Source: an uncultured Alphaproteobacteria bacterium
GTDB lineage: Bacteria > Pseudomonadota > Alphaproteobacteria > RF32 > CAG-239
Length of the DNA: 64,000 nucleotides
Direction of reading: 5' to 3'
NCBI GenBank assembly: GCA_944391615.1
Contig: CALXUE010000006.1
Coordinates: 17,665-81,664 of the forward strand
Made by a program: the position numbers and the translations under genes. Below are positions 7,910 through 64,000 of this stretch, in pieces (position 1 is the first letter of the stretch; each line of letters starts with the position of its first letter). The notes beneath the pieces are model-generated. The model saw nothing but the letters and a program-made list of their open reading frames with translations. It did not search any database and was not told where the DNA came from.

Positions 7910-7985
<76 letters not shown>

Positions 7986-24115: not shown

Positions 24116-25684
24116 TTATTTTTGATTATGATATATTTTTTGCAAGAGTAAACCAAATTTTTGAGTTTGTGAATTTTGTTTTGGTGGATTAATGAGATTA
24201 TCAACGGCTTGAGAGATTTGTTTAATCCATTTTTTATCATTATCACCAAAGAAATCGACATATTGTGTTAAAAAGTTGCTAGCCTCAGGATTAGATTTAA
24301 GCTGTTTTTCAAAATTCCACGCCTGCTCTTCAGCATTTGAAACAAAGGTGTCATAAGCAGCATAAAGTTTCTGCCATTGAGGATATTTTTCGCCTAACAT
24401 CTGAGAGATAAGATTTTTTGTTTGTTCAATTTTTTCAGAGTTATGATGAAGGCGCCATTCTGCATATTGATAAAAAAGCTTGCGCATAGTATCAGAAATA
24501 GAGTCGGAAAACTCTTTAGAATGATTATCCCCCATATAATAGGCAATCATTTCACTGCGTCTGGAAACAGGCTTATATATTTTGGAAACAAATTCAGAGT
24601 AGTGGTGCCGATTAACATATTGCATCATATCGCAAAACTTCATAACATCCAAATCCGAAAAATAAACATAATCTTTTTTTTGTGAAGAGAAAATATCCAC
24701 GCAATGAGAAAGTTCGTGCGTAATATGACGTATATTGTCTTTGCTTTTATAAAAAGCTGTATTTGCGCCAACAACGGGAATTTGGCTTTTTTTAACAATG
24801 GCAAAAGCGGGAGATTTTCCTTCTTTAAGATTGGATGCAATCAAGGATGAAGCTGAGTCCAAAACCAAAAACACCCCGTTGTTTATATTAAAGAAGAGAT
24901 GAAGATTTTTGTTTTCGTCTTTTGCCTGCAAGGCATAGGAATCAATATTTCTGAGCATATCACCGGCCCAAAAATAGTTATCGGCATAAGTAGCCTGGTC
25001 ATAAACCATTTTGTTTAAGGATAGAGATTTAGCGGTTTGGGTTGCCTCAATCCAAAAATTTTCATCAAAAGAGTTTTGCATCAACACAATATTTTGAAAA
25101 CAAGGTGCTTTTTTGAGCCAAGCAGAGGCGTTTTTATCAGCCAGATTTATTTTACGAAAGAGCTCATCATCAAGCATCACCCAATTTTGCTCGGAGTGTA
25201 AATCTTGCCATTCAAATGATTTTAAGCATTTTTGGAATCTTTTTTTGAAAAAGGTATAAATCTGCCATCTGTCAATTTGTGCGGGGGTACGTTTTTTTAT
25301 GTGATGAGCAGGCCAAGAATCCCGTCCCAAAAACTCAGCTTCTTTAACAAGAACATCTTGCGGAGCATCGGCACGAAAGAACTTATACCCGACAGGAGTA
25401 CCGATTCTATCCGTCCCATTCAAAAAGTCTTTTTCAAGGGAATGTATGGAATCATCTGCGCCATTGAAAAAATAGGTTCGCCAAAATTTTTTTACAAATT
25501 TCAAATCAGCGCTATAAGCAAGCAAAGCCAAAACGCTGTCTCTTCTTTCGGGATAAGGCGGTATGTAGTTGGAAAACTCAACCATAGAACGAGTATCCGG
25601 AAAATAGCGTTTCAAAGTATCTATCCGGTGGAATTTGACAATTTCATAAGCAATTTTGTTATCTAAAATTTTATTATATTGCAT
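24116..25684 (-). CDS. Hypothetical protein carrying an HExxH motif (possible zinc metallopeptidase-like)
   Basis: It has a single HELSH motif (ITHELSHCVD) and no signal peptide. The probable start is at MQYNKILDN. Confidence 0.35.
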   Translation of the reverse strand: MQYNKILDNKIAYEIVKFHRIDTLKRYFPDTRSMVEFSNYIPPYPERRDSVLALLAYSADLKFVKKFWRTYFFNGADDSIHSLEKDFLNGTDRIGTPVGYKFFRADAPQDVLVKEAEFLGRDSWPAHHIKKRTPAQIDRWQIYTFFKKRFQKCLKSFEWQDLHSEQNWVMLDDELFRKINLADKNASAWLKKAPCFQNIVLMQNSFDENFWIEATQTAKSLSLNKMVYDQATYADNYFWAGDMLRNIDSYALQAKDENKNLHLFFNINNGVFLVLDSASSLIASNLKEGKSPAFAIVKKSQIPVVGANTAFYKSKDNIRHITHELSHCVDIFSSQKKDYVYFSDLDVMKFCDMMQYVNRHHYSEFVSKIYKPVSRRSEMIAYYMGDNHSKEFSDSISDTMRKLFYQYAEWRLHHNSEKIEQTKNLISQMLGEKYPQWQKLYAAYDTFVSNAEEQAWNFEKQLKSNPEASNFLTQYVDFFGDNDKKWIKQISQAVDNLINPPKQNSQTQKFGLLLQKIYHNQK

Positions 25685-25826
25685 AAAATCAATCCCTAAA
25701 ACACAGGTAAGATAACATATAAAGACAAAAAAGTCCACAATTTTGTCATAATTTTTTTAGTGATTCATTAATTTTTTTATGCTATAATCAAATATAGATT
25801 AAAACGAAAGAGAGGGAGAATCACCA

Positions 25827-26060: not shown

Positions 26061-26378
26061 TTAAATAATGATAAAGTTAATAAACAACCCGCCGCAAATA
26101 CTCGAAAAATAAAAGGCCACAACGGAGGTGAATGTGTGTTTCAACATTTGTTTATAATCAAGGGACACACCATCATCCAAAAAACGTTGATTCAACGTAA
26201 AATTATAGAGTAGGGCAACTAAAATCACCAACAAGGCAAAAGCCCAATTTTTATAAAGAGCCAAAATTTGCTCCAAATCGAGCCAAATACCTTCAATAAG
26301 GCCAAACAAAATTCCCAACATCACCATCGGATGAAAGATAATACCGCTGGTAAAAAGAGCCATCAAGCCTTTAATCAT
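26061..26378 (-). CDS. Hypothetical small membrane protein
   Basis: It has three hydrophobic segments and no recognised family. Confidence 0.4.
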   Translation of the reverse strand: MIKGLMALFTSGIIFHPMVMLGILFGLIEGIWLDLEQILALYKNWAFALLVILVALLYNFTLNQRFLDDGVSLDYKQMLKHTFTSVVAFYFSSICGGLFINFIII

Positions 26379-26380
26379 GC

Positions 26381-26629
26381 TTAAAACCGCCCTTTAATAC
26401 GTTTTGAGAAAAAATTAGAATCACTTTCTTTAATGGAGCTAGGCCAAATAAAGCGTTGTCTGGAGGGGTTAGCAACAACTTCACCGTTTTTAATAATGGT
26501 AGAAGCAATCATAGAGATGTTGCCATGTTTCACTTTAGACTGAGAATTAAATCTAGACCAGTCAAAATTTTCAAAATCACGTGTATCCATAAACACCTCC
26601 ATAGCGTAACAGGAACATATAGAGTACAT
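26381..26629 (-). CDS. Hypothetical protein
   Basis: The ORF abuts 26061-26378 on the same strand and has no recognised family. Confidence 0.3.
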   Translation of the reverse strand: MYSICSCYAMEVFMDTRDFENFDWSRFNSQSKVKHGNISMIASTIIKNGEVVANPSRQRFIWPSSIKESDSNFFSKRIKGRF

Positions 26630-26741
26630 AATAAGTTGAAAAAGTAAACAAAAATTTAATCGATAAAGAAAAATAACTTGAGAAGAATAAAATTAGCAAA
26701 AAAAGATTGCCTAAACCCTTGTCAATCCTTGAAAATTTCTA

Positions 26742-26770
26742 TTTACAGCTTTTTATTTCTGTGCTATAAT
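26742..26770 (+). promoter_or_regulatory. Sigma70-type promoter of cassette 1 (TTTACA-17 bp-TATAAT) with an upstream CCTTG direct repeat
   Basis: The -35 TTTACA is at 26742-26747 and the -10 TATAAT at 26765-26770. The same 100-bp block is found at 39702-39799 and, inverted, at 35690-35788. CCTTGtcaatCCTTGaaaa lies at 26717-26735. Confidence 0.7.
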
Positions 26771-26806
26771 ACGAGTCGTGGAGATAAGTTGAAAGGTGTT
26801 TCGAAA

Positions 26807-27646
26807 ATGAAAAAACAAACTTTTTTGTTTTCAGCATGCAATGCTTTATTATGGCTTTTTAGTTATAATAATGTATATGCTGATGTTTCAAATTTCAAGA
26901 CAACAGACAAGGATTTTTTGACCAACACACAACACACACAGTTTTTGTCTGATGCCTCCGGCTTATCTCCCGATAAGTTTATCAAAGTTGCACAAGTTTG
27001 CTGGATTATGGACACCGGTGAATGTTTTGGTGTTAACTTTATTTCCGCTGACAGAGATTTGAATAATCCCTCTAACCCTGAAGATTATGTTCCCAAAGGG
27101 CCGGCTGATTGTATTGAAGAAGGTTATACCGTTACCAACTGTCCCAATGGCTATAAGGGCAACAAAGAATGTTTGTATGCCAAAGGGTATTATGCCGAAT
27201 GTATTGAAGACTGCCCCAGTAATTATAAACAATGTGAAGAGCCTTATCATGGTGTGGGGCAAGTTTGCGGCGATGGTTATTATGCCAGTTGTCAATGCGA
27301 CTACTGTGACGGATATTCCTACAAAAAAGAAGATATTCCCGATGGCTATGTGGCAGATGGTGAGCCTTGTAATTCATGCAATGGTCCAAGGTATAAAATC
27401 AAAGTCAACCCTTGTGAGGGTTATCAAGACTGCGGCTCGATGGGCGGCAAGGTCGGGGCAACATCCTGCTTGTCGGGCACGAATATGATGTATAGCGAAT
27501 GCAAACCTTGCCCGAGCTTAGGGGAATATGACACCTGTCCGCCGTGTTCGGTCTGTTCTTATGAAGAATGTTCCAACAAATATTATGTGACGGGTTGTGC
27601 TGCGGGCTGTCAAGATTACTGCGACTACTGCGCTTTTGAACAATAA
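26807..27646 (+). CDS. Cassette 1 gene A: secreted, extremely Cys-rich repeat protein of unknown family
   Basis: The start is at MKKQTF, downstream of the conserved promoter. It has a signal peptide (..NNVYA/DV) and more than 40 Cys in repeated CPxxY / GYYAxC / CxxC spacing. Paralogs lie at 34843-35682, 39803-40681 and 63826 to beyond 64000. Confidence 0.75.
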   Translation: MKKQTFLFSACNALLWLFSYNNVYADVSNFKTTDKDFLTNTQHTQFLSDASGLSPDKFIKVAQVCWIMDTGECFGVNFISADRDLNNPSNPEDYVPKGPADCIEEGYTVTNCPNGYKGNKECLYAKGYYAECIEDCPSNYKQCEEPYHGVGQVCGDGYYASCQCDYCDGYSYKKEDIPDGYVADGEPCNSCNGPRYKIKVNPCEGYQDCGSMGGKVGATSCLSGTNMMYSECKPCPSLGEYDTCPPCSVCSYEECSNKYYVTGCAAGCQDYCDYCAFEQ

Positions 27647-27691: not shown

Positions 27692-28489
27692 ATGAGAAAG
27701 TTTTTATTATATTCATCGGCTTTGGCGTTAGGTTTGAGCGGGGTGGCTGAGGCGGCCTGCATCCAAACACCAACGTGTTCATCTTTGGGCTACACCTCAA
27801 CTTCATCTTGCACCGGCGGAACCAAATGCCCCTTTGGCAATTACTGGAACTGCACCGCAGCTGACTTAAATAATAAGATTACGGAACTTGAAACCCAAAT
27901 CACTGAACTCAAAAAAGAAATGGTAATGTCTAACTGCCAAGTTGGTGATGTTTTGTATTCGGATATGACGATTAATCCTGATTATGTTAGTGGCAAAACA
28001 CCAATCGGCGTGGTATTTGATTGTCGAAAAAAATTAGCGATAGGGTTGGAGCAATCTGACGAAGAGTGGTCAATTACCGATGATTTTGATGTTCCTGGGG
28101 TTGAAAATATTACAGATACAACGAAGGTTTTGCAAGATATGGATGGAAAAAAGAATACGAGTACAATATTAGCCTATTGTAAAACAAAAGGGAAGCGTTG
28201 TCCGGCGTTTGAGTATGTGAATAGTTATAAAACAGAAGGAACTCAAGCAGGGGATTGGTACTTACCATCTATGGGAGAATTATATGCGATATATGGTAAT
28301 ATGGGTGTATTGAATGTTACGTTAATAAAAATAGTGGCAACAAGGCTTGTTGCAAGTTACTATTGGTCTTCTTCCGAGTATTCAAGCACCGACGCGTGGA
28401 ATTTGAGGTTCAGTAGCGGTAACGTGAACTACAACGATAAGTACCACAGTGCCGATTTCGGTTACGTTCGCCCAGTCCTAGCTTTTTAG
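27692..28489 (+). CDS. Cassette 1 gene B: secreted protein with a Cys-motif N-module, a coiled coil and a DUF1566/Fib_succ_major-like C-terminal domain
   Basis: It has an RBS GGAGGAG and a signal peptide (GVAEA/AC). The N-module is AACIQTPTCSSLGYTSTSSCTGGTKCPFGNYWNC, followed by a KITELETQITELKK heptad. The C-terminus PIGVVFD...AGDWYLPSMGELYAIYGN...YYWSSSEYSSTDAWNLRFSSGNV...YVRPVLAF resembles the Lcl C-terminal/DUF1566 pattern. Confidence 0.75.
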   Translation: MRKFLLYSSALALGLSGVAEAACIQTPTCSSLGYTSTSSCTGGTKCPFGNYWNCTAADLNNKITELETQITELKKEMVMSNCQVGDVLYSDMTINPDYVSGKTPIGVVFDCRKKLAIGLEQSDEEWSITDDFDVPGVENITDTTKVLQDMDGKKNTSTILAYCKTKGKRCPAFEYVNSYKTEGTQAGDWYLPSMGELYAIYGNMGVLNVTLIKIVATRLVASYYWSSSEYSSTDAWNLRFSSGNVNYNDKYHSADFGYVRPVLAF

Positions 28490-33981: not shown

Positions 33982-34797
33982 CTAAAAAGCTAGGACTGGA
34001 CGAACGTACTCGCTAAGGTAGTTCTTATAGTAGTAGTCCACGTATCCGTCACTGAACCTCAAATTCCACGCGAAGTCGCTTGAATACTCGGAAGAAGACC
34101 AATAGTAATTTGCACCAAGCCTTGTTGCCGCTATTTTCCCTAACGCAACATTTAACACACTCATATTACCATATATCGCATATAATTCTCCCATAGATGG
34201 TAAGTACCAATCTCCTGCTTTTGTTCCTTCTGTCTTATAGCTATTCACATACTCAAACGCCAGACAATGCTTCCCTTTTGTTTTACAATAAGCCAATACC
34301 GTACTTGTATTCTTTTTCCCATCCAAGTCTGCTATCGCTAATGTACGGTCTGTTATATTATCAACCCCTGGAACATCAAAATAATCTGGATATGACCAAT
34401 GTTGTTGAGATTGCTCCAACCCTATAGCCAATTTTCCACTATGGTCAAACACCACGCCGATTGGCGTTTTTGACACAACATAATTTGAATTGCACGTCAT
34501 ATCCGAATACAATATATCTCCGACCAAACAGTTGGCGGTTGAAACTTCTTTTTTGAGTTCAGTGATTTGGGTTTCAAGTTCCGTAATCTTATTCGTTTGT
34601 TCTGTAATCTTATCATTTAAATCGCTTGCGGTGCAGTTCCAGTAATTTCCGAAGGGGCATTTTGTTCCACCGGTGCAAGATGAGGTTGAGGTATAACCCA
34701 AGCTTGAACAACTCGGGGTCTGAATACAAGCCGCAAGTACAGTGTCGCTAAAACCAAACACTGCCAAAGCCGATGAATATAATAAAAACTTTCTCAT
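33982..34797 (-). CDS. Cassette 2 gene B (paralog of 27692-28489, about 80% aa identity)
   Basis: It has the same N-module (AACIQTPSCSSLGYTSTSSCTGGTKCPFGNYWNC), coiled coil and DUF1566-like C-terminus ending YVRPVLAF. RBS GGAGGAG. Confidence 0.75.
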   Translation of the reverse strand: MRKFLLYSSALAVFGFSDTVLAACIQTPSCSSLGYTSTSSCTGGTKCPFGNYWNCTASDLNDKITEQTNKITELETQITELKKEVSTANCLVGDILYSDMTCNSNYVVSKTPIGVVFDHSGKLAIGLEQSQQHWSYPDYFDVPGVDNITDRTLAIADLDGKKNTSTVLAYCKTKGKHCLAFEYVNSYKTEGTKAGDWYLPSMGELYAIYGNMSVLNVALGKIAATRLGANYYWSSSEYSSDFAWNLRFSDGYVDYYYKNYLSEYVRPVLAF

Positions 34798-34842: not shown

Positions 34843-35682
34843 TTACTGTTCAAAAGCGCAGTAGTCGCAATAATCGGCACAACCTGTGGCGCAACCCGTC
34901 ACATAATATTTGTTGGAACATTCTTCATAAGAACAGACCGAACACGGCGGGCAGGTGTCATATTCCCCTAAACTCGGGCAAGGCTTGCATGCGCTATACA
35001 TCATATTCGTGCCCGATAAGCACGAGGTTGCTCCGACCTTGCCGCCCATCGAGCCGCAATCTTGATACCCCTCACAAGGGTTAGGCTTAATTTTATACAC
35101 CTCGCCGTTGCAGGATACGCAAGGCGCCCCGTCCGCCACATAGCCATCGGGAATATCTTCTTTTTTGTAGGAATAGCCGTCGCAGTAGTCGCATTGACAA
35201 CTGGCGTAATAACCATCGCCGCATTCTTGCCCCACACCATGATAAGGCTCTTCACATTGCTTATAATTACTGGGACAGTCTTCAATACATTCGGCATAAT
35301 ACCCTTTGGCATACAAACATTCTTTGTTGCCCTTATAGCCATTGGGACAGGTAGTAATGGTATAACCTTCTTCAATACAATCAGTCGGCCCTTTGGGAAC
35401 ATAATCTTCAGGGTTAGATGGATTATTCAAATCTCTGTCAGCGGAAATAAAGTTAACGCCGAAACATTCACCGGTGTCCATAATCCAGCAAACTTGCGCA
35501 ACTTTGATAAACTTATCGGGAGATAAGCCGGAGGCATCAGACAAAAACTGTGTGTGTTGTGTGTTGGTCAAAAAATCCTTGTCTGTTGTCTTGAAATTTG
35601 AAACATCAGCATATACATTATTATAACTAAAAAGCCATAATAAAGCATTGCATGCTGAAAACAAAAAAGTTCTATTTTTCAT
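34843..35682 (-). CDS. Cassette 2 gene A (paralog of 26807-27646, about 95% aa identity)
   Basis: It is collinear with 26807-27646 and nearly identical, including the signal peptide and Cys spacing. It lies downstream of the inverted copy of the promoter block. Confidence 0.75.
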   Translation of the reverse strand: MKNRTFLFSACNALLWLFSYNNVYADVSNFKTTDKDFLTNTQHTQFLSDASGLSPDKFIKVAQVCWIMDTGECFGVNFISADRDLNNPSNPEDYVPKGPTDCIEEGYTITTCPNGYKGNKECLYAKGYYAECIEDCPSNYKQCEEPYHGVGQECGDGYYASCQCDYCDGYSYKKEDIPDGYVADGAPCVSCNGEVYKIKPNPCEGYQDCGSMGGKVGATSCLSGTNMMYSACKPCPSLGEYDTCPPCSVCSYEECSNKYYVTGCATGCADYCDYCAFEQ

Positions 35683-35718
35683 TTTCGAAACACCTTTCAA
35701 CTTATCTCCACGACTCGC

Positions 35719-35747
35719 ATTATAGCACAGAAATAAAAAGCTGTAAA
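35719..35747 (-). promoter_or_regulatory. Sigma70-type promoter of cassette 2 (inverted copy)
   Basis: The reverse complement gives TTTACA (35742-35747), a 17-bp spacer and TATAAT (35719-35724). The CCTTG direct repeat lies at about 35755-35775 on the minus strand. Confidence 0.7.
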
Positions 35748-35846
35748 TAGAAATTTTCAAGGATTGACAAGGGTTTAGGCAATCTTTTTTTGCAAAAAAA
35801 ACGCCCGAGTTTTATCCTCGAGCGTTATAAAAATTATAAATTATGT

Positions 35847-39647: not shown

Positions 39648-39690
39648 GAAAAAATCTCTCAAGAATAAAAACTTGAGGGATTTTTTTTTG
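39648..39690 (+). terminator. Rho-independent terminator after secA
   Basis: The hairpin TCTCAAG..CTTGAGGGA is followed by TTTTTTTTT. Confidence 0.5.
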
Positions 39691-39745
39691 CAAAAAAAGA
39701 TTGCCTAAACCCTTGTCAAACCTTGAAAATTTTTATTTACAGACT

Positions 39746-39774
39746 TTTTTCCTTGTGCTATAATACGAGTCGTG
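39746..39774 (+). promoter_or_regulatory. Sigma70-type promoter of cassette 3
   Basis: TTTACA (39746-39751), a 17-bp spacer and TATAAT (39769-39774). The upstream block is conserved, including CCTTGtcaaaCCTTGaaaa. Confidence 0.7.
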
Positions 39775-39802
39775 GAGATAAAGTAATTGAAAGGAAATTA
39801 TC

Positions 39803-40681
39803 ATGAGTAAGCGGAAGTTTATCTTGTTGGCTTCGTTGTCTGTATGCGCGTTTGTTGCGGAGACGGCGCAAGCCGATATTTCTTCTTCAATGAATTATAT
39901 ATTCAAAGATGTTACACTTTTCAACACACTTCACACACATTTATCTTTGAATGGAGCTTTATCTCCACAACAAGTTTCAAAAAATCAAAAATCTTTGGTT
40001 AAGGTAGCCCAAGTCTGCTGGATTATGGACACGGGAGATTGCGCCGGTTTGGACTTTGTGAGTTCGGATATTAATGGTTCGGGCAATAAACCACCGAGCG
40101 AATATGACAAGAAAGGCCCTGAAGATTGTATCAAAGAGGGTTACACCATCACCAACTGTCCGGATGGGCAAAAAGGTGACGGAGAATGTATGTATGCCAA
40201 TGGCTACTATGCCAAATGTATTCCCGACTGCCCGTCATCTTATACCACCTGCACGTCGCCTTATAAAGGGGTGGGGCAAGTTTGTGGGGATGGCTTGTAT
40301 GCGGAATGTTGTCAAGACACTTGTCCGGCAGATTACAAATACACCTTAGGTTCAATTCCTGACGGATATGAGGCGGTTGGAGAACCTTGTGTGCAATGCA
40401 ACGGTAATAACACCACGGCAGTCAAAAAATACAGAGTGAAAGAAAAAGACTGTTCCGGATTTTTGGATTGCGGGACTTTAGGCTGTGAAACAGGGGCAAC
40501 GACTTGTCAATCAGGAAGCGTGGTTAAGTGTTCAAAATGCAAACCTTGCCCGAATTTGGGCTCAGAAAGTGAATGTCCACCATGCACAGTCTGCAGCTTT
40601 GAGGAATGTTCAAACTTATACATCGTCAGCGGTTGCAAAACAAATTGTACCGATTATTGCAACTACTGCGCTTCTGAATAA
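39803..40681 (+). CDS. Cassette 3 gene A (divergent Cys-rich paralog)
   Basis: It has a signal peptide (AETAQA/D), the conserved KVAQVCWIMDTGDC block and the same Cys-repeat architecture, ending CNYCASE. Confidence 0.7.
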   Translation: MSKRKFILLASLSVCAFVAETAQADISSSMNYIFKDVTLFNTLHTHLSLNGALSPQQVSKNQKSLVKVAQVCWIMDTGDCAGLDFVSSDINGSGNKPPSEYDKKGPEDCIKEGYTITNCPDGQKGDGECMYANGYYAKCIPDCPSSYTTCTSPYKGVGQVCGDGLYAECCQDTCPADYKYTLGSIPDGYEAVGEPCVQCNGNNTTAVKKYRVKEKDCSGFLDCGTLGCETGATTCQSGSVVKCSKCKPCPNLGSESECPPCTVCSFEECSNLYIVSGCKTNCTDYCNYCASE

Positions 40682-40722: not shown

Positions 40723-42003
40723 ATGAAAAAATTTTTATTATATTCAACCGCATTCGTAGTTTTGAGCGGGACGGCAAATGCAGCCTGTATCCAAACCCCG
40801 AGTTGTGCCAGTTTGGGATATGACAGTAACTCAGCCTGTGAAAATGGTCTAAAATGTCCGTGGGGCAATGCTTGGTATTGCAAAGTCGGAGAATTGGAGG
40901 AAGCAGTCAACAATGCCGAAAAAGCAAAAACTTGTATCCCCGGAGCCGTTTTTAACTCCGATCGTAGTTGTACCGAAAAACAAGAACTTGGCAAAATTCC
41001 GATTGGTGTTGTTGTCTATGCTGACGGCAAAGGCCACGGCCAAGCCATGGCTTTAGAAAAAATAGATATTGTAGCATTAAACAATTATTTAAAAACTGTT
41101 AAATACACAACTTTTTCTAAGTATCCAAATAAATATGCAGTAGAGTATCGTTACACTTATGCTAGACACTCAAGTGGAGATGAAGAATATGTAAAATGGC
41201 CTCAAGAAAAATGTATATCAACAGATGATATATATGTTAAAGGATTGAAAGAGTTTTCTAATTTAGAAGAAGCATCGCTTGAATTTGATAGTAAAAACAT
41301 TACAGCTCAAATACAACAATCACTAAACACAAATAATGCTAAGATTCAACAATATTTTAATACGGCGTCTGCATTAAATTCTATTGTGAATGAATCTAAA
41401 ATTATGGAGTGTAGTCGTTCTAATGTAGTAGGCTATCCATGTTATCTTTACGAGGTTAGTAATAAATCGGAATACTATTGGTATTCAGGTGATGCATCCA
41501 CATCTTTGCTTAAAACCATACAAAAAATAAAAGCTTATAAAACAACAGGAACCTCAGCTGGAGATTGGAATATGCCTGCCCCTGGAATATTTAATTCTAT
41601 AAAAGTAAATTTTGAAAAGATTAAAGAAACTTATGCCTTACTTAATAAAAATTTTAACTATAATCAAATGGTTACAATGGGAATGTATATCAAAAATGCA
41701 GGAGAAAAGACAAATAAAAAATGTACGTTTATGGATGCTAAATTTACGAGTAATGATGGTGATATAGATAAAAATTATCAAAGTTATCAATATGATTCAA
41801 GTTATTCAAGTCCATCAGACACGTACTCTCAGTATTACTATTATTATCTAATACCAACAACAGATTTCAATACTAAATTACCATCTGTTTCAGCGGAAAT
41901 AACATCATATCCAAAATACATAGCATTTTCAAATTCTGCAACGTATGGTACAGCAACCACATCATCAGGAGGAAAGCAAATCTATCCTGTAATTGACTTT
42001 TAG
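40723..42003 (+). CDS. Cassette 3 gene B (divergent, extended paralog with an N/Y/S-rich low-complexity C-terminal region)
   Basis: The N-module AACIQTPSCASLGYDSNSACENGLKCPWGNAWYC and the block PIGVVVY...GTSAGDWNMPAPGIFNSI align to the other B genes. The C-terminus is replaced by a Tyr/Asn/Ser-rich sequence. Confidence 0.65.
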   Translation: MKKFLLYSTAFVVLSGTANAACIQTPSCASLGYDSNSACENGLKCPWGNAWYCKVGELEEAVNNAEKAKTCIPGAVFNSDRSCTEKQELGKIPIGVVVYADGKGHGQAMALEKIDIVALNNYLKTVKYTTFSKYPNKYAVEYRYTYARHSSGDEEYVKWPQEKCISTDDIYVKGLKEFSNLEEASLEFDSKNITAQIQQSLNTNNAKIQQYFNTASALNSIVNESKIMECSRSNVVGYPCYLYEVSNKSEYYWYSGDASTSLLKTIQKIKAYKTTGTSAGDWNMPAPGIFNSIKVNFEKIKETYALLNKNFNYNQMVTMGMYIKNAGEKTNKKCTFMDAKFTSNDGDIDKNYQSYQYDSSYSSPSDTYSQYYYYYLIPTTDFNTKLPSVSAEITSYPKYIAFSNSATYGTATTSSGGKQIYPVIDF

Positions 42004-42064: not shown

Positions 42065-44272
42065 TTATTCTTCATCCTCATCGGCATCGTCGCCGTTATC
42101 TTCTTCAGGATTATAGTCAATACCGAGTTTGGCTAACATATCTTCATTAATATCTTCACGTTGCGCCACAATCCAATCCGGCACGCAAGGCGCAGGCGGT
42201 AAAGCGGCCAAAGCTTTCATTTTCTTATCCAAATACCAACGTGGAGAATCAGCCATAATCGGCCTGTCAATGGAACCTTGCATCAACACCACTTGCTTAA
42301 GCATAGGCAAGCTTAAAAGTTGCGTAGTCGAAATAACTGACGTTCCCTGCAATTGGTAAGACACATTTTTAGAAAATGGATTCGTACCTTTACCCAATCC
42401 CTCTGTTTTTGAAAAAGATGTTGTCTGCACCGTCTTGTTACCAATCATTTTAGAGAAACGTTGCGCAGTCACCTCGTTGTTTTGAGAAAGAATAACTTTA
42501 CAAGCCGTGGTAGAAATCACGGTTTCCAAATCATCCTTACCATACTTTCCGGAAATTTGCCCCAAGTCTTGCCCGATAAGCAAATACGACACTTTTTGAC
42601 CACGACCGACGGCCGGTCCGTCAATAATAGCGCGAAGCTTAGGCATTTGCGGAAACTCATCCAGCACAAACAAAGCAGGGAACGGCCCCATCACGCCATC
42701 AGACTTGTTGTGGAATTTTGGCGGATTCGCAATCAAATAAGATGACATCAATTCAATAAACGTTCCCGAAATAATGTTCAATGCGCGCGCATCAACCTGG
42801 TTAACGGACAAATAAACCGAAATCGGCTTCCACTCACCAGTCACAGGGTCTTTCATTCCGCGCAAATCCTTAAATTGCAAATCAGAAAAACTCGTGCGCG
42901 AAACCACAGCCGCGTTTTTGAAAATACCAATACCGGCCAAACCGGTAGACAACACGGAACCACGCTCTTTATCCGGCATGGCGCTGAGCTGGCTGAGTTC
43001 AACAATACACCGTTGTGAGTAACCAAACTTTCTGGCTTCGGTAATGGCTTCTTCCAACATATTGCGCATCGGGTCAGCCATAGCGGCCATCTGGTCGCCC
43101 TCATCCAAGCGGCGCTTAATTTCTTCCGATTGTTTGATTTGAGCTTCGGTAATCCATTCCAAAATCATGGCCAAGCAGGCTTCATGCCCAATCCATTTCT
43201 CCGGCAACAAAGCCCATGAGCCAATGGGCAAATAGTTATCAATGGTGAGTCTGCCGGCTCTCAGATCTTGAATAGCTCTGGCCGCCATTGGATCACGCAT
43301 CTCAAGATAATAGCTTTCCAACACACGCTTATCTTCATCATCCATTTTACCTTCATAAATACGCCCGATAAAATAGTCATTAGCGCGTGCTTTTTCACAT
43401 TTAAAAGACACAAAGTGAATAAATCCTGTCAAAGCGGCACGACCTGTTGTTGACCAGTGCGGGTCTGCTCCCCCCTTAGGCTCTTCCACCAAAATATTGC
43501 ACATAGAGTCAATATACATATCTCGGTCAGGTCCCGGAGCAGGCAATGCATTAGGCGAAAGCGGGTTCCAACTCGGATAATAAATACCTTCAGCCGGATT
43601 GTCTTCCGCACCCCAGTTAATCACAAATACAGGGCCGTCTTTGGCACGAGCTCCGGTTGTGGAATAGCACAACTCAGGCTTTGGGTCGTTTACGATAATA
43701 CTCAGGCCGTGTGAGTTAAAAATAGTCGGAATCACCACGCCGGCAGTTTTACCGGTACCCGGAGGCGCACAGCAAAGAGTTGCCAGAGTTTCTTTAAGCA
43801 TAAGCATTTTGCCGTTAAACTTTCCGACCACTTGACAAAAGCCGTCAAAACCAAGCAACGGCATTTTTTTAATATCTTTTTCAGTGGCCAATCTTGCCGC
43901 ACCATGAATATTAGATTGAAAACGATAAGGATTTGTCAAAAAACCAATCGTCAATCCCACCGGAAAGCTTATAAACGGCAACACCGGCACCCACAAACTG
44001 ACCGAAAAAGGTCCGTTATAATGAGTCAGTTGTTGAAACCAACTCCAATAACGAGAAGTCAAATAAGAAGGGTCGTTAAAAACAGCCTGCAAAAAGCGAT
44101 AAGCAACATCCATGCTTGTTTTGGAAATTCCGGCCCCGATAAGATAACCGATAGGCAGCGAAAAAACAGCCAAAAAAATCGTCAACACCAAAGTGACAAT
44201 AGCGGAAATAACCATCCACTGCACCGCATTGTCATATTCTTCCCATTCTTCACCGCGTTCTTCAGACATCAA
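42065..44272 (-). CDS. Type IV secretion coupling protein (VirD4/TraG/DotL family ATPase)
   Basis: It has N-terminal transmembrane helices and the T4CP signature HGAARLATEKDI (GSARWA-like). Walker A is CCAPPGTGKTAGVVIPT and Walker B/DEF is LFVLDEFPQMPKL...IGQDLGQI. The C-terminal tail is acidic (DNGDDADEDEE). Confidence 0.8.
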   Translation of the reverse strand: MMSEERGEEWEEYDNAVQWMVISAIVTLVLTIFLAVFSLPIGYLIGAGISKTSMDVAYRFLQAVFNDPSYLTSRYWSWFQQLTHYNGPFSVSLWVPVLPFISFPVGLTIGFLTNPYRFQSNIHGAARLATEKDIKKMPLLGFDGFCQVVGKFNGKMLMLKETLATLCCAPPGTGKTAGVVIPTIFNSHGLSIIVNDPKPELCYSTTGARAKDGPVFVINWGAEDNPAEGIYYPSWNPLSPNALPAPGPDRDMYIDSMCNILVEEPKGGADPHWSTTGRAALTGFIHFVSFKCEKARANDYFIGRIYEGKMDDEDKRVLESYYLEMRDPMAARAIQDLRAGRLTIDNYLPIGSWALLPEKWIGHEACLAMILEWITEAQIKQSEEIKRRLDEGDQMAAMADPMRNMLEEAITEARKFGYSQRCIVELSQLSAMPDKERGSVLSTGLAGIGIFKNAAVVSRTSFSDLQFKDLRGMKDPVTGEWKPISVYLSVNQVDARALNIISGTFIELMSSYLIANPPKFHNKSDGVMGPFPALFVLDEFPQMPKLRAIIDGPAVGRGQKVSYLLIGQDLGQISGKYGKDDLETVISTTACKVILSQNNEVTAQRFSKMIGNKTVQTTSFSKTEGLGKGTNPFSKNVSYQLQGTSVISTTQLLSLPMLKQVVLMQGSIDRPIMADSPRWYLDKKMKALAALPPAPCVPDWIVAQREDINEDMLAKLGIDYNPEEDNGDDADEDEE

Positions 44273-44290
44273 TCAATCCTTTAAGCACTT

Positions 44291-45655
44291 TTAAGCAAGG
44301 TTACGTACAATTTTTTTAATTTTTTCAAAGTCCTCTCTGCCGATAGGTTCCACAGCATCCGGCAAAGTTTTAGCAAAGAGTTTAATTTCTTTAGGCGTGC
44401 CTCTATCAATACGTGTCACATTCACCTTCAAATCGTTCCACACATCAAACATATCTTCAGCATTAATGATATTACCGATAGAAACCACCACAAAGGCCCC
44501 AACATTAAACCTCATACCTTGTTCATCAAGGGTTTCTGAAAGAACCCTGCGAGCAATATCAACTTTTCGCACCGGAGAAATTCTGTGGCTGCTTTCCGAA
44601 AACCACAAAGGCTCTTCATCATTAAATCTTTCTTCATCAGCCAACCAGTCACCTGGCTCTTTGTCAATCAAGCACAAAACAAGTTGATTTTTAGCCACAC
44701 AAACAAAGTCAATCAAATTTCCCTTAAACATAACGCCGTTAATCGTTTCAAAACCGTGTTGTCTAATAATATCAAACACAGAACTTCCACTGCCTTTCAT
44801 AGCGGCTGACTGAGTACTTTTGGATGTTGCCGGCAAATTCTGATTATCACGGTTTTTATTGTTGCGAGGTCTGTTTTCTCTAGACTCTCGAGGAGAAATA
44901 TCGCGATTATTATCTTTTTTCTGGGGTAAATTTTTCTTAAAATTATTATCAGTCTTTCTCTCAACCGGAGCTTGAGGTTTTGTTTCTTCTTCAGACTTTG
45001 AAAAATCAAAGTCATCAATATTAAAGTCAAAATCATCATCTTTGCTGTCCATGTCAAACAAAGAATGACTAAATTGCTTTGTTTCCTGAGGCTTGTTTTC
45101 AACAACGGGAATACTTTTTTGTGCGGGTATAATGCTGGGCGTAACACTAGGTGTAACTGTTGCGGAAGAAGCAAGAGTTGAGCGATTCTTGGTTGCAATC
45201 AAGCTGGTCGCATTTTCAGGCTCGGGGCGTTCGTCAAGGGGTAAGCGCAAACTTCTGGGACGCACTTCTTTATAAGATTTTTTCTTTTTAATATTTTTCA
45301 TACCGGCAGAAGTCGTAATGATTTTAACCGGCCTAAAGAAAAATTGCTTAAATATCTTCCACGGATAGGAAGCCGCTTTTACAAACAATTTTTCCCATTT
45401 AACCATGCTAAGTGCAGCCCAACCGCACAACCATAAAGGAATAAAGGTTAAGATAATCAACACAAAGGCCCATTCTTTAGGTGTATTAATAACCCAACCG
45501 GAAAGCCACAAATTCCAAGCATGACTCCAGTGTGAGGATTGAAACATGTCAAAATGCCAGTTTCTGAGCATAATAACACGAACCCCTTCAATGAAGAATA
45601 AACTCCAGAAGAGGCCGACGCATAAAATTCGTGTTAAAATGACCAACGGTTTCAA
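44291..45655 (-). CDS. Hypothetical membrane protein upstream of the T4CP gene (Trp-rich N-terminal membrane module paralogous to 45716-46201)
   Basis: The N-terminal hydrophobic helices carry the IPLWLCGW motif, followed by a basic low-complexity linker and a C-terminal globular domain. It lies 18 bp upstream of the T4CP gene. Confidence 0.45.
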   Translation of the reverse strand: MKPLVILTRILCVGLFWSLFFIEGVRVIMLRNWHFDMFQSSHWSHAWNLWLSGWVINTPKEWAFVLIILTFIPLWLCGWAALSMVKWEKLFVKAASYPWKIFKQFFFRPVKIITTSAGMKNIKKKKSYKEVRPRSLRLPLDERPEPENATSLIATKNRSTLASSATVTPSVTPSIIPAQKSIPVVENKPQETKQFSHSLFDMDSKDDDFDFNIDDFDFSKSEEETKPQAPVERKTDNNFKKNLPQKKDNNRDISPRESRENRPRNNKNRDNQNLPATSKSTQSAAMKGSGSSVFDIIRQHGFETINGVMFKGNLIDFVCVAKNQLVLCLIDKEPGDWLADEERFNDEEPLWFSESSHRISPVRKVDIARRVLSETLDEQGMRFNVGAFVVVSIGNIINAEDMFDVWNDLKVNVTRIDRGTPKEIKLFAKTLPDAVEPIGREDFEKIKKIVRNLA

Positions 45656-45715
45656 AGCATCAAACCCTTAATTAAAATATGACATGTAAGATAGCACAAC
45701 AAAGTTAATAATAGA

Positions 45716-46201
45716 TTATTTTTTTGCATCAGAAATTTTCTGATTAACGGCATCGCGAATTTGTGCCGTAAGTTTGGAATTATCCAAATCTTTTTCAATT
45801 TTTTTCAGTTCATCTTTAATTTCATCTTCTGCAGATTCTGTTTTAACTGAAGTTCCCAAATTTTTCAAGACAATTCTCGCAGTATTTTGTTCATATTCGG
45901 CAATTTTTTGGGCCGAATACCAATCAAAAGGTTTGGCCAAAAGTGCCATAATTTTAATTTTGAGAGCTTTTCTCCATCCCCAAATCCAAATTGGCAAAAT
46001 TGCAATAAGGATAAGAACAAAAACATAATCGGCAAACGAGCGAATAACGCCGCCTTCATTCCAAAAGGTGCTCAAGAGTTGCCAGTCTTGAAGCCGAAAC
46101 AAGCTAAAATTCCAAATTCCTTGTAAAATAAAATCAAACACGGAAAATAACAAAACCGACCACACAACGCCGACAAAACAAAATTTAATAAATTTTTTCA
46201 T
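45716..46201 (-). CDS. Hypothetical small membrane protein (paralogous N-module; LPIWIWGW)
   Basis: The start is at MKKFIKF. It has the same W...W..G.VI...FVLI..I.P.W..GW pattern as 44291-45655 and a charged coiled-coil C-terminus. Confidence 0.45.
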   Translation of the reverse strand: MKKFIKFCFVGVVWSVLLFSVFDFILQGIWNFSLFRLQDWQLLSTFWNEGGVIRSFADYVFVLILIAILPIWIWGWRKALKIKIMALLAKPFDWYSAQKIAEYEQNTARIVLKNLGTSVKTESAEDEIKDELKKIEKDLDNSKLTAQIRDAVNQKISDAKK

Positions 46202-46226
46202 GAGCGCTCCCAACAGCAACAAAAAA

Positions 46227-47672
46227 TTATCTGCCGCCTTCATTCAGTCTGTTAAAGTTGTTTTGGGCAACAACCGACTGACGATGAGTCTGATGCTTTT
46301 GTACATAATCGTTAGATAAGCGTGATTTTAATTTGTTAAGTTTGACTCGTCTAACGTTATTTTGCGCACGCGCATTGTCATTTGCAAGTTGCTCCTGCAT
46401 ATAAACATCAAAGGCCTTTGTATTGGCTTTTTCTTGCTGAAGATCATTAAGCAAAGCCTCGTGCATGGATTGTTTGGATCTTGCGCTCATATCGGTTCCG
46501 TCGCGAATTTGCAACAGATTTTGAACATATTTGTTTTCTTTATATTGGCCTTTTGACTTGCGTCCCAGCCATTTCTTTTTGCTATAGCCGACAAAGTTTC
46601 CTTTAACAACATTTTTGCGCATAACATCCAAACCTTTGTCAACATTATCTTTGAGCATAGCACTGGTATTGTAGGCGCTTTTGCCGCTTTTAACCGCATT
46701 TTCAATACTGCGCGCAAACAGAAGATAACCCTCATTTTTAAACTTAGCCATGGCTTTGTCCATGTCTTTAATCTCAGTATCATCAGGATTGCGCATTTTT
46801 GCATCCATAAACATAAGCTGAGCATAGTTATTGGCAAACTGCGCTGCGGCCACACGATAAGAATTATAGGCTTCTTGGCATTTTGCAATATTGTTTGTAT
46901 CTAAAAATTGATTAAGCTTTTTGGGGTCAGCGTTTTGAAGACGAGCTTTTTGTTGAGGCGTTAATCCCTCATAATTTCCTTCACGAATTTTTTGTGCTTG
47001 CTCAATAAGACTTTTATCGTTGTCATACAGAGCTTCTTTAGCGTTAATATCTTCAACAGCCTTCTTTTCGGCATCGTTCATTTTTTTATAAGTGTCATAA
47101 GACTGCAAAGCTTTTTCTGCTGGTTTTTGAGCATCTTGCAAATGTTGCTTGTATTTTTTATCATAATATCCGGACTTAGTCTTTTTGCAACACCATTTCC
47201 AAATTCCGTTTAAGCCGGCGATAAGCCAGTCATTGTACATATAGTCAATAATGTCGCCGGCCTTGAAGATATTATCTTCTTTATCATCATAGTCTGCTCC
47301 GCCGATTTCATCTGGCTTACGTGTGATTGAACCTGTCTTCTTCTCTTCGGGAGTATTTTGTTCTTCGGGAACTTTGACCTGCTCGTTAACGGTTGTTTCT
47401 TTATTTTTTTCGTTAACGGTTGTTTCCTTAACAGCCTCGTTAACGGTTGTTTCCTTAACAGCCTCATTAACGGTTGTCTCTTTAACTTCTTCATTGACTT
47501 CAAGGGTTTCGTCATCGTTTTCATTTACATTGACAGTATCTTGATTTTGAGTTTCTTGAGGATTAGCGTCATTAACTTCCAGTGTGTCCTGATTCGCGTT
47601 ATCTTGCGTCTCATTTTCGCTTACTTCAAAGGTATCATTATCTTTTTTCTCGTCGACCATATGTTTCACCAT
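46227..47672 (-). CDS. Hypothetical protein with an acidic N-terminal repeat region ((V/A)KETTVNE x4) and a Lys-rich helical C-terminus
   Basis: The ORF holds 27-bp tandem DNA repeats at about 47385-47480, an N-terminus rich in E/N/T/D and a K/Q/N-rich C-terminus. No recognised family. Confidence 0.45.
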   Translation of the reverse strand: MVKHMVDEKKDNDTFEVSENETQDNANQDTLEVNDANPQETQNQDTVNVNENDDETLEVNEEVKETTVNEAVKETTVNEAVKETTVNEKNKETTVNEQVKVPEEQNTPEEKKTGSITRKPDEIGGADYDDKEDNIFKAGDIIDYMYNDWLIAGLNGIWKWCCKKTKSGYYDKKYKQHLQDAQKPAEKALQSYDTYKKMNDAEKKAVEDINAKEALYDNDKSLIEQAQKIREGNYEGLTPQQKARLQNADPKKLNQFLDTNNIAKCQEAYNSYRVAAAQFANNYAQLMFMDAKMRNPDDTEIKDMDKAMAKFKNEGYLLFARSIENAVKSGKSAYNTSAMLKDNVDKGLDVMRKNVVKGNFVGYSKKKWLGRKSKGQYKENKYVQNLLQIRDGTDMSARSKQSMHEALLNDLQQEKANTKAFDVYMQEQLANDNARAQNNVRRVKLNKLKSRLSNDYVQKHQTHRQSVVAQNNFNRLNEGGR

Positions 47673-47745
47673 ACATTCATTTGTTTAATCTAACTTGATA
47701 GTAACACAAAAAACAAATTTTGTCCATTATTTTTGTTGAATACAA

Positions 47746-48657
47746 TTAAGCTTTTAGCTTTTTCAAAAAAGCCCCGATAATACGGTTCATCCGAATACCG
47801 TCTTGAGGTTTAACCTTAATAAGCCCAAAGAAACGCGGCTTTATTTTATCCACTTGAATAGGGGCAAAAACAGCCGGATTGTTTGTCAAAACCTTATAAG
47901 CCCCGTCAGCATCCTTGCGAGCGGTTTTAAAATAGTTTTTCACCAGCCTGTCAGCATCAATCGGAAATTTCTTTTTATTGATAGCCTCGATATATTTGTT
48001 CATCAAATTAATACGGCGCTGATGCTGCAAATATATTTCGCGTTCCAAGCGCTTTTTTTCCCGCTTAAGCTTTCGTTCCTTATAAGCAATTTCGCGGCCT
48101 TCCATTTCAATCAACGATTCAACGTAGGAGATAATGGCAAATTGCAAAGTATCATCTTGAAGTTTTTCTGCAAAATCCAGAAGCTGCTCATCAGTAGATT
48201 GCAAAGAAATTTGCCCCACAATATCAGGATAAGCCTTAATCAAAATGTCCCAACCTTTTTCAAAATCTTCGGCAATAATTTTGCCTCTGCTGGGTTTATA
48301 ATGAGGCGTCAAATCCATCGGCTGTAATCTAAACTTACGAAAAGACAAATTCTTGTCCTTTGCAATCATGTTAAGAGCATCTTCAAAATTTCGATAAGCT
48401 TTGAACAGAGCTTTTTCAGACTTGTCAAGAGCATCTAATTCAGGGTCCTCTTCCTCAATGTCGCTGTTGTCTTGCGTAAAATTTGCGACCTGTATGTTTT
48501 CTTGAGGCACCTCGACATCGTGAACAACATCGGTCTTTTTTTGAGAAGAGAGCGTATCATCAATATCAACATCTTCCAGTTGGTTATTGATAAAGTCATT
48601 CAAGAGCTTTTCAAACTCACTGTCATCATTTTCAGCCATGAAGCAATTATCTCCCAA
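47746..48657 (-). CDS. Hypothetical acidic protein
   Basis: The N-terminus is very acidic (ENDDSEFEKLLNDF..DVDIDD) and no domain is recognised. It lies in the same minus-strand gene string. Confidence 0.4.
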   Translation of the reverse strand: MGDNCFMAENDDSEFEKLLNDFINNQLEDVDIDDTLSSQKKTDVVHDVEVPQENIQVANFTQDNSDIEEEDPELDALDKSEKALFKAYRNFEDALNMIAKDKNLSFRKFRLQPMDLTPHYKPSRGKIIAEDFEKGWDILIKAYPDIVGQISLQSTDEQLLDFAEKLQDDTLQFAIISYVESLIEMEGREIAYKERKLKREKKRLEREIYLQHQRRINLMNKYIEAINKKKFPIDADRLVKNYFKTARKDADGAYKVLTNNPAVFAPIQVDKIKPRFFGLIKVKPQDGIRMNRIIGAFLKKLKA

Positions 48658-62900: not shown

Positions 62901-63791
62901 TTAGAAAGCAATCACTGGACGAGCTATGTAAACATAATGATAATAACCAGTAAATCCATCATAAATACTATCTCCGGTATTCGTGTGATTTATTGATGTT
63001 TTATTTTCTTCACCCCTCCCATATAAATAAGCCTTTTGTTTATCTATCGCTGTTGAAGTCCAATAATAGACATTATAAACATGTTGCTGATGGTTTCCAT
63101 GGCTATTTGAATAGTCATAAAGAGGTTTTTTATTTATTTTCTTAATAGTATCATTGATGGTACTTTTGTGAGTGCTAATATAGTTAAACTCCACAAAAGA
63201 TGGCAAATGCCAATCTCCGGCACTTGTACCGGCGGTTTTATATTCATAGGCATATTCCACTGCCGGACAGCTTTTACCGTTTGCTTTACAATATTCATAA
63301 ATAACTCGGGTGTTTTTTTTCCCCCATCCATCATATGCATAATCATTCGGATGCAAATCGAGCCCTGGGATATCAAAAGCAGTCGTTGACCACGCAACAT
63401 TTTCTTTTTCCTCCAAAGCCACAGCCAAATAGTTTGTCACATCAAACACCACGCCGATTGGCTCTTTGGTGTAAACCACGTCTGTGTTACAGCTAAAATC
63501 ATCATACAAAATATCACCAACTTTGCAGTTTACCTTGTTTTCATTATTGGAGCCTTGCTGAATTTTTTTGATTGTGGTTTCAAGTTCGGTAATTTTGTTA
63601 TTAAACTCTGTTTTAATATCATTAATGCTGCAGTTCCAAGCGTTGCCAAACGGACACTTTGTTCCCCCCGAACAAGACGAACTCGAGGTGTAGCCCAAGC
63701 TTGAGCAGCTTGGCGTTTGAATACACGCCGCCTCAGCCACGCCACTTAACCCCACCACCAAAGCTGAACTCATTAATAAAATCTTTCTCAT
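62901..63791 (-). CDS. Cassette 4 gene B (paralog with the Cys N-module and a DUF1566-like C-terminus)
   Basis: The start is at MRKILLM with RBS GGAGGAG; the longer tracked ORF is an out-of-frame read of the A-gene 3' end. The N-module is AACIQTPSCSSLGYTSSSSCSGGTKCPFGNAWNC, the coiled coil is KITELETTIKK, and the C-terminus is AGDWHLPSFVEF...YYWTSTA...YIARPVIAF. Confidence 0.7.
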   Translation of the reverse strand: MRKILLMSSALVVGLSGVAEAACIQTPSCSSLGYTSSSSCSGGTKCPFGNAWNCSINDIKTEFNNKITELETTIKKIQQGSNNENKVNCKVGDILYDDFSCNTDVVYTKEPIGVVFDVTNYLAVALEEKENVAWSTTAFDIPGLDLHPNDYAYDGWGKKNTRVIYEYCKANGKSCPAVEYAYEYKTAGTSAGDWHLPSFVEFNYISTHKSTINDTIKKINKKPLYDYSNSHGNHQQHVYNVYYWTSTAIDKQKAYLYGRGEENKTSINHTNTGDSIYDGFTGYYHYVYIARPVIAF

Positions 63792-63825: not shown

Positions 63826-64000
63826 CTCTTGCCCTTATTCAAAAGCGCAGTAGTTGCAATAATCGGTACAACCCGTTTTACAGCCCGAAACGACATATAA
63901 GTTTGAACATTCCTCAAACGTGCAGACCGTACACGGCGGACATTCACTTTCTGTACCCAAATTCGGGCAAGGCTTGCAACGTGAGCATTTTGTCACACTC
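63826..64000 (-). CDS. Cassette 4 gene A, 3' portion (continues beyond the window end)
   Basis: The reverse-strand translation ends ...CTDYCNYCAFE-stop, matching the C-termini of the other A genes. The ORF is open to the window edge. Confidence 0.6.

Follow-up and report, generated by a model that had tools for sequence, protein, structure and literature searches.

Cysteine-rich exported proteins paired with Lcl_C-type genes in an uncultured alphaproteobacterium: a candidate two-chain adhesin family

The 64,000-nucleotide (nt) stretch analyzed here (hereafter the window), from contig CALXUE010000006.1 of an uncultured Alphaproteobacteria bacterium, carries a gene, referred to as A1, that encodes an exported protein unusually rich in cysteine. 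A1 opens a cassette of two genes, in which a member of the A family is followed by a second gene, B. The window contains four such cassettes, three of them complete and the fourth cut by the right window edge, with B starting ~40-45 nt downstream of each A copy. Operon layout, natural gene fusions, a module common to both proteins, the parity of their Cys counts and the contrast in conservation between A and B lead us to view A as one half of an adhesin. We consider it slightly more probable than not that A and B form a two-chain exported adhesin repertoire, in which a constant A supplies the stalk or anchor, rich in disulfides, and a variable B the lectin-like tip. The cassette context with a Lcl_C/DUF1566 gene, absent from an earlier sequence-only reading of A1, is the main clue to A function. 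The paralogs A2 and A3 were found by scanning the window for Cys-rich open reading frames (ORFs), and the cassette elements are the following.

26693..26787, plus strand: promoter and 5' leader block of cassette 1 (-35 TTTACA at 26742-26747, -10 TATAAT at 26765-26770)
26807..27646, plus strand: gene A1, an intact ORF of 279 codons plus TAA, encoding a precursor of 279 amino acids (aa)
A1 residues 1-25: signal peptide of typical Sec type, MKKQTFLFSACNALLWLFSYNNVYA, with cleavage before DVS
A1 residues ~40-80: conserved N-terminal region, NTxHT..LSP..KVAQVCWIMDTGEC
27110..27643, plus strand: Cys-rich region of A1 (residues 102-279, 25 Cys)
27692..28489, plus strand: gene B1, starting 45 nt past the end of A1 and preceded by the ribosome-binding site AGGAGG
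B1 parts: signal peptide (1-21), Cys handle ACIQTPTCSSLGYTSTSSCTGGTKCPFGNYWNC (22-54), heptad-like stretch NKITELETQITELKKE, Lcl_C/DUF1566 head (171-262)
33982..34797, minus strand: gene B2, paralog 75% identical to B1
34843..35682, minus strand: gene A2, paralog 95% identical to A1
35702..35806, minus strand: promoter and leader block of cassette 2
39687..39781, plus strand: promoter and leader block of cassette 3
39803..40681, plus strand: gene A3 (292 aa, 29 mature Cys), 51-53% identical to A1
40723..42003, plus strand: gene B3 (426 aa), with the same signal peptide and Cys handle and an expanded, divergent head ending ...YPVIDF
62901..63791, minus strand: gene B4 of the fourth cassette, complete, 46% identical to B1
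63838..64000, minus strand: C-terminal end of gene A4, truncated by the window edge

The truncated A4 was recognized by tblastn, which matched A1 residues 230-278 with 63838-63984, covering the final ~49 codons of A4, at 67% identity. The head of B carries a known domain. Pfam Lcl_C (PF07603) matches B1 (E 6e-9, 36.6 bits) and B2 (E 6.7e-9, 36.5 bits) above its gathering cut-off of 34.9 bits and B4 weakly, under the cut-off (E 6e-4, 20.5 bits). The window copy of B3 has zero Pfam matches, yet it is a BLAST homolog of B1, and its ortholog in L051, the contig of a related strain, shows a weak Lcl_C match. B1 also matches phrog_4245 in PHROGs (E 1e-14) and, through its C-terminal domain only, the NCBIfam equivalog adhesin_Lcl (NF046116), with 20.1 bits against a cut-off of 500. 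Directly past the AxA signal-peptidase site, all four B proteins begin with ACIQTP(S/T)C(S/A)SLGY.S.S.C..G.KCP.GN.W.C, and a short heptad-like stretch (NKITELETQITELKK) lies next to this handle motif. No collagen-like GXY repeats were found in the A or B sequences. A lipoprotein reading of the N-terminal Cys of B was rejected for want of a lipobox: checked by eye, without a predictor, the pattern [LVI][ASTVI][GAS]C is met neither by A (VYA before D) nor by B (AEA before AC, ANA before AC, or AGA before GC). Residue -3 of B is non-hydrophobic (E, N or D, and G in one copy), as in AxA sites for signal peptidase I.

No terminator-like site was found on the plus strand between A1 and B1, and the ~95-nt promoter-containing blocks ahead of A1, A2 and A3 are 90-94% identical. 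The A1 promoter, TTTACA-17-TATAAT at 26742-26770 with an extended TG, is close to the sigma-70 consensus, matching 11 of its 12 positions, and AAAGGTG lies 8-9 nt ahead of the A1 ATG (26807). An alternative TTG start for A1 at 26678 was rejected because the -10 box of this conserved promoter falls inside the resulting extension. Downstream of the cassette 1 promoter lies the box CGAGTCGTGGAGATAA; the 31-nt box occurs three times in the window, against zero expected occurrences, and the -10 element with the start of the leader, TATAAT-(A)CGAGTCGTG(G/A)AG(A/G)(T/C)AA, is located at 26765-26787, 35702-35724 and 39759-39781. The same -10/leader box precedes A genes in other species known as metagenome-assembled genomes (MAGs; loci L001-L035), even where A is only ~45% identical, which suggests a common regulator or leader element. 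An Rfam scan of the whole window revealed no known leader RNA ahead of A, its sole match being a single tRNA gene at 7910-7982 on the plus strand.

The pairing of A with B extends well beyond the window. A scan of one genome per species identified 50 loci (L001-L050) with the family, in several MAG species, and nearly every A among them has a B 20-45 nt downstream. Natural in-frame fusions of A to an Lcl_C head are present at four of these loci (L013, 490 aa; L018, 497 aa; L032, 511 aa; L033, 529 aa). The L013 and L018 fusions have one common junction (...CSNLYIITADYCDCKIGDILYSD...) but diverged heads, so that the fusion survived duplication and is presumably functional. At both loci (L013, 5899-7371; L018, 5875-7368), in-frame deletions join the B head to A at a point immediately ahead of the final four Cys of A, removing the signal peptide, handle and coiled coil of B, with the junction at a DYC / DY.NC microhomology.

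A and B also share a module. A residues 98-135 (CIEEGYTVTNCPNGYKGNKECLYAKGYYAEC), which include a GY-Cys module at residues 102-132 (CxxxGYTxxxC..C..C), align with the B handle in hhalign profile-profile comparison (probability 79.5%, E 1.5e-5), a match indicating that the handle is homologous to the module inside A. The remainder of the Cys-rich region, residues ~146-279, corresponds to a unit that is tandemly repeated in long relatives: the 1067-aa protein P0073 contains seven tandem stretches matching profile positions 149-278, with a GY-Cys module after each. In two relatives (P0067 and P0071), A has a handle-like module at its C-terminal end, and in three one-gene relatives (P0074, P0075 and P0203) the A module is followed by extra Cys repeats and then by an Lcl_C-type end, ...(V/L)RP(V/I)...

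The parity of Cys counts sets stand-alone proteins apart from fused ones. Counted from the VCW motif onwards, stand-alone A proteins have an odd number of Cys (25, 27 or 29) in 58 cases and an even number in 4, whereas long or fused members are odd in 21 cases and even in 66 (Fisher p = 1.6e-18, uncorrected for relatedness; the sequences are related and the counts are not independent). Counts are even in each of the four genomic fusions and in each of the ten long forms inspected. In turn, 23 of 23 B proteins with a recognized handle, from the window and from the MAG BRZ_CI__bin98 (hereafter bin98), have an odd number of Cys (9, 11, 13 or 15), five of them in the handle, compared with four in the free-standing GY-Cys module. 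Since stand-alone A and B are nearly always odd and the fused and long forms mostly even, the simplest reading of this parity suggests one orphan Cys in each protein, the two being joined by an A-B disulfide. Optional Cys in A are gained and lost together (214/229, r = 1.0; 247/268, r = 0.92), the behavior expected of disulfide partners. The P0073 junction (…NYC-xxPITx-C-xxLGY…) lines up with the A tail (…DYCDYCAFEQ) and the B start (ACIQTPSCSSLGY…), and this alignment points to A Cys275 or Cys272 and to B Cys23, the second residue of mature B, as candidate linking residues. We rate a specific intermolecular A-B disulfide at somewhat below an even chance.

The two partners differ in how strongly they are conserved. 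A is under purifying selection and is a functional gene, with ratios of nonsynonymous to synonymous divergence (dN/dS) of 0.115 for A1/A2 and 0.17 for A1/A3, and B is less constrained (B1/B2: 0.30 overall, 0.37 in the head). The single MAG bin98 has at least 28 copies of the family; among 20 A copies from this genome the median identity is 76%, as opposed to 45% for their B partners, in which the handle is almost invariant, and the divergences of A and B are uncorrelated (r = 0.006). The bin98 B genes show at least three kinds of C-terminus while keeping the handle, so that one handle is combined with at least three head types. Some of them (at L005, L006, L007, L009 and L011) couple the handle to non-Lcl_C ends (…MPKMITF, …NVTTFY, …NITTFN) and have more Cys (11-15). 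Taken together, the pattern of conservation fits a constant part, A, and a variable part, B.

Within the window, A1 and A2 belong to an inverted repeat of 1034 nt, whose arms, promoter included, are 94% identical. Synonymous divergence (dS) between them is 0.085 in the first 95 codons and 0.40 in the rest, and their promoters are nearly identical, so the 5' end (26693-27090 versus 35400-35806) is likely to be a recent gene-conversion tract. Cassette diversity appears to stem from gene duplication, divergence and gene conversion. As for signs of a diversity-generating retroelement (DGR), no ORF resembling a reverse transcriptase was noticed in the ORF lists, where not all ORFs were scanned against Pfam, and the sole repeats in the 24-44 kb region are the cassettes themselves.

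Cysteine makes up 27 of the 254 mature residues of A1 (10.6%) and 25 of 178 (14%) in residues 102-279; the sequence-only reading had put it at about 15% of the mature protein, an enrichment that holds and a figure that does not, 14% being attained only in the Cys-rich region. The median Cys content of window ORFs of at least 150 aa (n = 59) is 1.2%, compared with 10% for the A1 protein, and a level of ~10% is reached in the window solely by A1 and its own paralogs. The enrichment is far beyond chance. A1 is also enriched in Gly (9.8%) and Tyr (9.1%) and has five CxxC motifs (164/167, 188/191, 232/235, 244/247/250 and 272/275), and the most conserved stretch of the whole A family, KVAQVCWIMDTG(D/E)C, is located close to the mature N-terminus. 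The strings quoted in that reading as recurring units are all present (CIEEGYTVTNCPNGYKGNKEC at residues 102-122, YAKGYYAEC, EDCPSNYKQC, YHGVGQVCGDGYYASCQCDYCDGY, CKPCPSLGEYDTCPPCSVCSYEEC and the end, CDYCAFEQ), but they do not constitute tandem repeats inside A, and the (I/M) and (V/I) alternatives in them are differences between window paralogs. An hhalign comparison of five A sub-regions revealed no clear internal repeat, and on these grounds we rejected A as an internal tandem-repeat protein. Of the higher-scoring sub-region pairs, R3/R4 is explained by common residues, and R1/R2 (67%, E 5e-5, with a four-residue overlap) may reflect partly real similarity. True tandem arrays of the 149-278 unit are confined to long relatives such as P0073.

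Gene A matches no family at E<=1 in Pfam and NCBIfam or at E<=0.01 in PHROGs, and a Pfam scan of 74 aligned family members at E<=1 yielded nothing meaningful, with four scattered chance matches at E>0.06. A search of PDB sequences with the A family profile returned zero matches at E<=10. AlphaFold2, run on the 74-sequence alignment, models A residues 95-275 with a predicted local distance difference test (pLDDT) score of 85-95 as a string of short beta-hairpins, and residues 1-90 with scores below 50; a separate AlphaFold sub-model of residues 146-279 has a mean pLDDT of 80. Foldseek searches with the full model against PDB and BFVD, and with the sub-model against PDB, gave nothing better than E 1.8 and a template modeling (TM) score of 0.18 in PDB and E 0.2 in BFVD. 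The predicted hairpins of residues 95-275 fit a rigid stalk, and a new bacterial fold is possible. The description of A1 as an unrecognized protein, made from sequence alone, is therefore borne out by Pfam, NCBIfam, PHROGs, PDB profile and Foldseek searches, and no confident Pfam match covers the Cys-rich region. The "cysteine-rich repeats" put forward in a preprint as markers of horizontal gene transfer (Cx6-9Cx5-7Cx8-11Cx7-8CC) are apparently unrelated to A, judged by spacing alone.

A search of 5.8 billion proteins identified 72 A-family clusters, none of them named or with a Pfam domain and almost all from ENA metagenome assemblies. An exhaustive profile search of 1.84 billion representatives, clustered at 50% identity, expanded the family to 397 clusters at E<=1e-3 (268 at E<=1e-10), and its members of bacterial type, with signal peptides and operon partners, number in the hundreds. 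All 50 genomic loci belong to MAGs labelled uncultured Alphaproteobacteria, proteobacterium, Pseudomonadota or 'Azospirillum sp. UMGS63'. More distant relatives (28-38% identity) come from numerous contigs with the label 'human gut metagenome', of which at least seven are from one sample at >100x coverage. The exact A1 sequence was sought in public assemblies and returned no record. The literature on the host lineage, RF32/CAG-239, offered nothing usable, and we make no order-level claim.

On the stalk-and-tip reading, A and B would cross the inner membrane via Sec and be oxidized in the periplasm, where small beta-hairpin modules, each stabilized by disulfides, would make A an elongated rod. 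A would then join B, probably through the B handle and possibly by a single intermolecular disulfide between the orphan Cys (A Cys275, B Cys23), yielding a complex with the one-chain order of the relatives: N-terminal region, Cys-rich stalk, lectin head. In this complex A would serve as the constant stalk or anchor and B as the ligand-binding tip, and amplified cassettes, their B heads diverging much faster than A, would provide a repertoire of binding specificities. The B heads would probably bind glycans, either from the gut environment or on other cells.

Several observations weigh against this proposal. Four stand-alone A proteins have even Cys counts; among 12 B proteins of other MAGs, two seem to be even, with one Cys subtracted by eye as belonging to the signal peptide; and in the L044/L045 lineage the long A is even while most B proteins appear odd. 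The orphan Cys of B may have another partner, in a B-B disulfide, or be a free thiol. No outer-membrane route or anchor was identified, A and B showing no lipobox, beta-barrel or known sorting signal, and both could remain periplasmic. The proposal leaves unexplained the first ~70 residues of mature A, which are conserved (pLDDT <50). With one and the same strong promoter ahead of each of the three complete cassettes, we see no sign of the one-at-a-time expression typical of classical antigenic variation. The ORFs, their signal-peptide-like N-termini, the operon arrangement, copy number, pattern of conservation, purifying selection, fusions, Cys parity and lack of known domains in A are observed; physical association of A with B, the disulfide link, surface location and adhesive function are what we infer. 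A bolder version of the proposal combines several of its elements: a split adhesin whose halves are stapled by one disulfide where relatives have a peptide bond, with a stalk of new fold confined to uncultured gut Alphaproteobacteria, and with dozens of cassettes per small genome, their 5' ends homogenized by gene conversion, forming a co-regulated combinatorial lectin coat. We hold this version to be doubtful. If true, the coat would parallel, in bacteria, the variant surface coats of protists that are rich in Cys.

Operon linkage proves co-expression only, and A might instead act outside the final structure, either in an unrelated function or as a helper in the periplasm or in secreted form (for instance a folding scaffold, an export adaptor or an inhibitor). 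A general helper would be expected to be much more conserved than B and not to co-vary with it, as A is. We nonetheless regard this as unlikely, since the A module is found N-terminal to an Lcl_C head in single polypeptides of several lineages, a permanent fusion unusual for a helper, and since every B copy keeps its own A, though one helper gene would suffice; the odd/even Cys parity would also be left unexplained. The Cys of A might alternatively bind metal (Zn or Fe), as proposed for the variant surface proteins of Giardia, in place of a dense disulfide network, and the five CxxC motifs of A1 lend themselves to such an arrangement. The signal peptide, implying folding in the oxidizing periplasm, argues otherwise, as do the optional Cys pairs 214/229 and 247/268, which are not CxxC neighbors and bear the signature of disulfide partners; the Cys-rich part contains no conserved His- or Asp-rich coordination pattern, and metal binding therefore seems distinctly improbable.

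We attach very little credence to the two remaining explanations, a eukaryotic origin and mobile cargo. The sequence-only reading had likened A1 to EGF, granulin or Cys-knot modules and proposed acquisition from, or mimicry of, host proteins. The Cys/Gly/Tyr-rich composition, extracellular destination and small hairpins of A recall such modules, TNFR-like ones included, and relatives of A occur in human-gut metagenomes; Notch EGF, uromodulin, complement control protein (CCP) modules and CD40 figure among the Foldseek matches, and the distant relative P0203 has a borderline match to RANK_CRD_2, its individual stretch sub-threshold, in a repeat region outside A. EGF, CCP and TNFR structures appear, however, only among non-significant Foldseek matches (E 2-9, TM <=0.2), zero of the 74 members match an EGF, granulin, cystine-knot, TNFR-type or other eukaryotic Cys-rich Pfam family at E<=1, and the PDB searches returned no sequence or fold match. 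All genome matches (50 of 50 loci) fall in alphaproteobacterial or proteobacterial MAGs, the G+C content of the region (0.38) equals that of its surroundings, and the operon that holds the family, like its Lcl_C partner, is bacterial; neither the resemblance nor the proposed acquisition or mimicry found support in these data. If the cassette were carried by a phage or other mobile element, for example as a receptor-binding tail-fiber pair or a polymorphic toxin, this would accord with the occurrence of DUF1566 domains in phage proteins, the phrog_4245 match of B1, the status of DUF1566 as a known diversification substrate and common target of DGRs (PMC4159848, PMC5758913) and the type IV secretion system (T4SS) coupling-protein gene adjoining cassette 3. 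Against it, A has no match by tblastn in 50,697 phage records and 72,556 plasmids and no relative in IMG/VR. The cassettes lie among the housekeeping genes ispA, aspS and secA, a placement conserved in a related strain without the T4SS gene, and their surroundings showed no immunity-like gene, integrase, reverse transcriptase or template repeat.

The window cassettes are interspersed among housekeeping genes (uvrC, ispA, xseB, rnd, aspS, a PpiC/SurA-like gene and secA), and occupy equal positions in L051. Adjoining cassette 3, the 42065-48657 region (minus strand) encodes a T4SS coupling protein of VirD4/TraG type (Pfam 9e-57), followed by four ORFs; three of these were scanned and have no Pfam match, and one (46227-47672) contains KETTVNE repeats. 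In the syntenic L051, rpoZ and relA/spoT lie directly after B3 in place of the T4SS region, which for this reason looks like an inserted island. A 685-aa ORF at 57977-60034 (minus strand) has a weak, sub-threshold match to a protein-kinase domain (E 7e-4) and a C-terminal hydrophobic segment. Three ORFs between uvrC and cassette 1 (24116-25738, 26061-26378 and 26381-26629, all on the minus strand) have no significant Pfam match, and the 105-aa ORF among them resembles a small membrane protein.

Densely disulfide-bonded extracellular proteins are uncommon in bacteria, and the A family comprises at least 397 clusters lacking a name, a domain assignment or a structural relative. The partner domain Lcl_C and the idea of an expanded family of lectin-like adhesins are already known. 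The Cys-rich A family, its obligatory and probably covalent pairing with B, and the scale of its amplification in uncultured, partly gut Alphaproteobacteria are undescribed in the resources searched. An A-B adhesin would likely dominate the cell surface, shaping attachment to mucus, host cells or other microbes. The A family would provide a new stalk or scaffold fold and a clear case of a gene split bridged by a disulfide, and A-B would offer a means to study, and perhaps to capture or culture, a poorly known gut lineage.

Among known systems, the Lcl protein of Legionella pneumophila is secreted by the type II secretion system, retained at the cell surface and able to bind host glycosaminoglycans through a C-terminal DUF1566 domain that is trimeric and C-type-lectin-like and sits on a collagen stalk (PMC11162425). 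A-B resembles it in having a signal peptide, a predicted elongated, non-globular stalk and a C-terminal C-type-lectin-like head, which in B belongs to the same C-terminal family. It differs in lacking collagen GXY repeats, its stalk being a Cys-rich module with no known relatives, in its predicted disulfides, of which the Lcl C-terminal domain has none, and in being split over two genes present in dozens of copies per genome. Expanded families of DUF1566 paralogs include the DUF1566 surface proteins of Leptospira and the 'major paralogous domain' proteins of Fibrobacter. Like A-B, these families and the C-type-lectin-fold proteins of DGRs comprise many exported, variable, lectin-like ligand-binding domains per genome; unlike them, A-B has no lipobox and no retroelement was seen, and each head has a dedicated Cys-rich partner gene. 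The short beta-hairpins of the A model, presumably stapled by disulfides and strung into a rod, are reminiscent of EGF, CCP/sushi, TNFR cysteine-rich domain and granulin modules, from which A differs in its Cys spacing and in the lack of any significant sequence or structure match. The variant-specific surface proteins (VSPs) of Giardia are extracellular proteins with ~10-12% Cys and many CxxC motifs, encoded by a large multigene family and consisting of a variable and a conserved part. A-B resembles VSPs and other CxxC-rich protist coats in Cys content, CxxC motifs, multigene organization and the combination of a variable with a conserved part. A showed, however, no sequence or Pfam relationship to VSPs, it has no transmembrane helix and no CRGKA tail, and its host is bacterial; in A-B, moreover, it is the conserved part and not the variable part that is rich in Cys, and the copies have one promoter in common.

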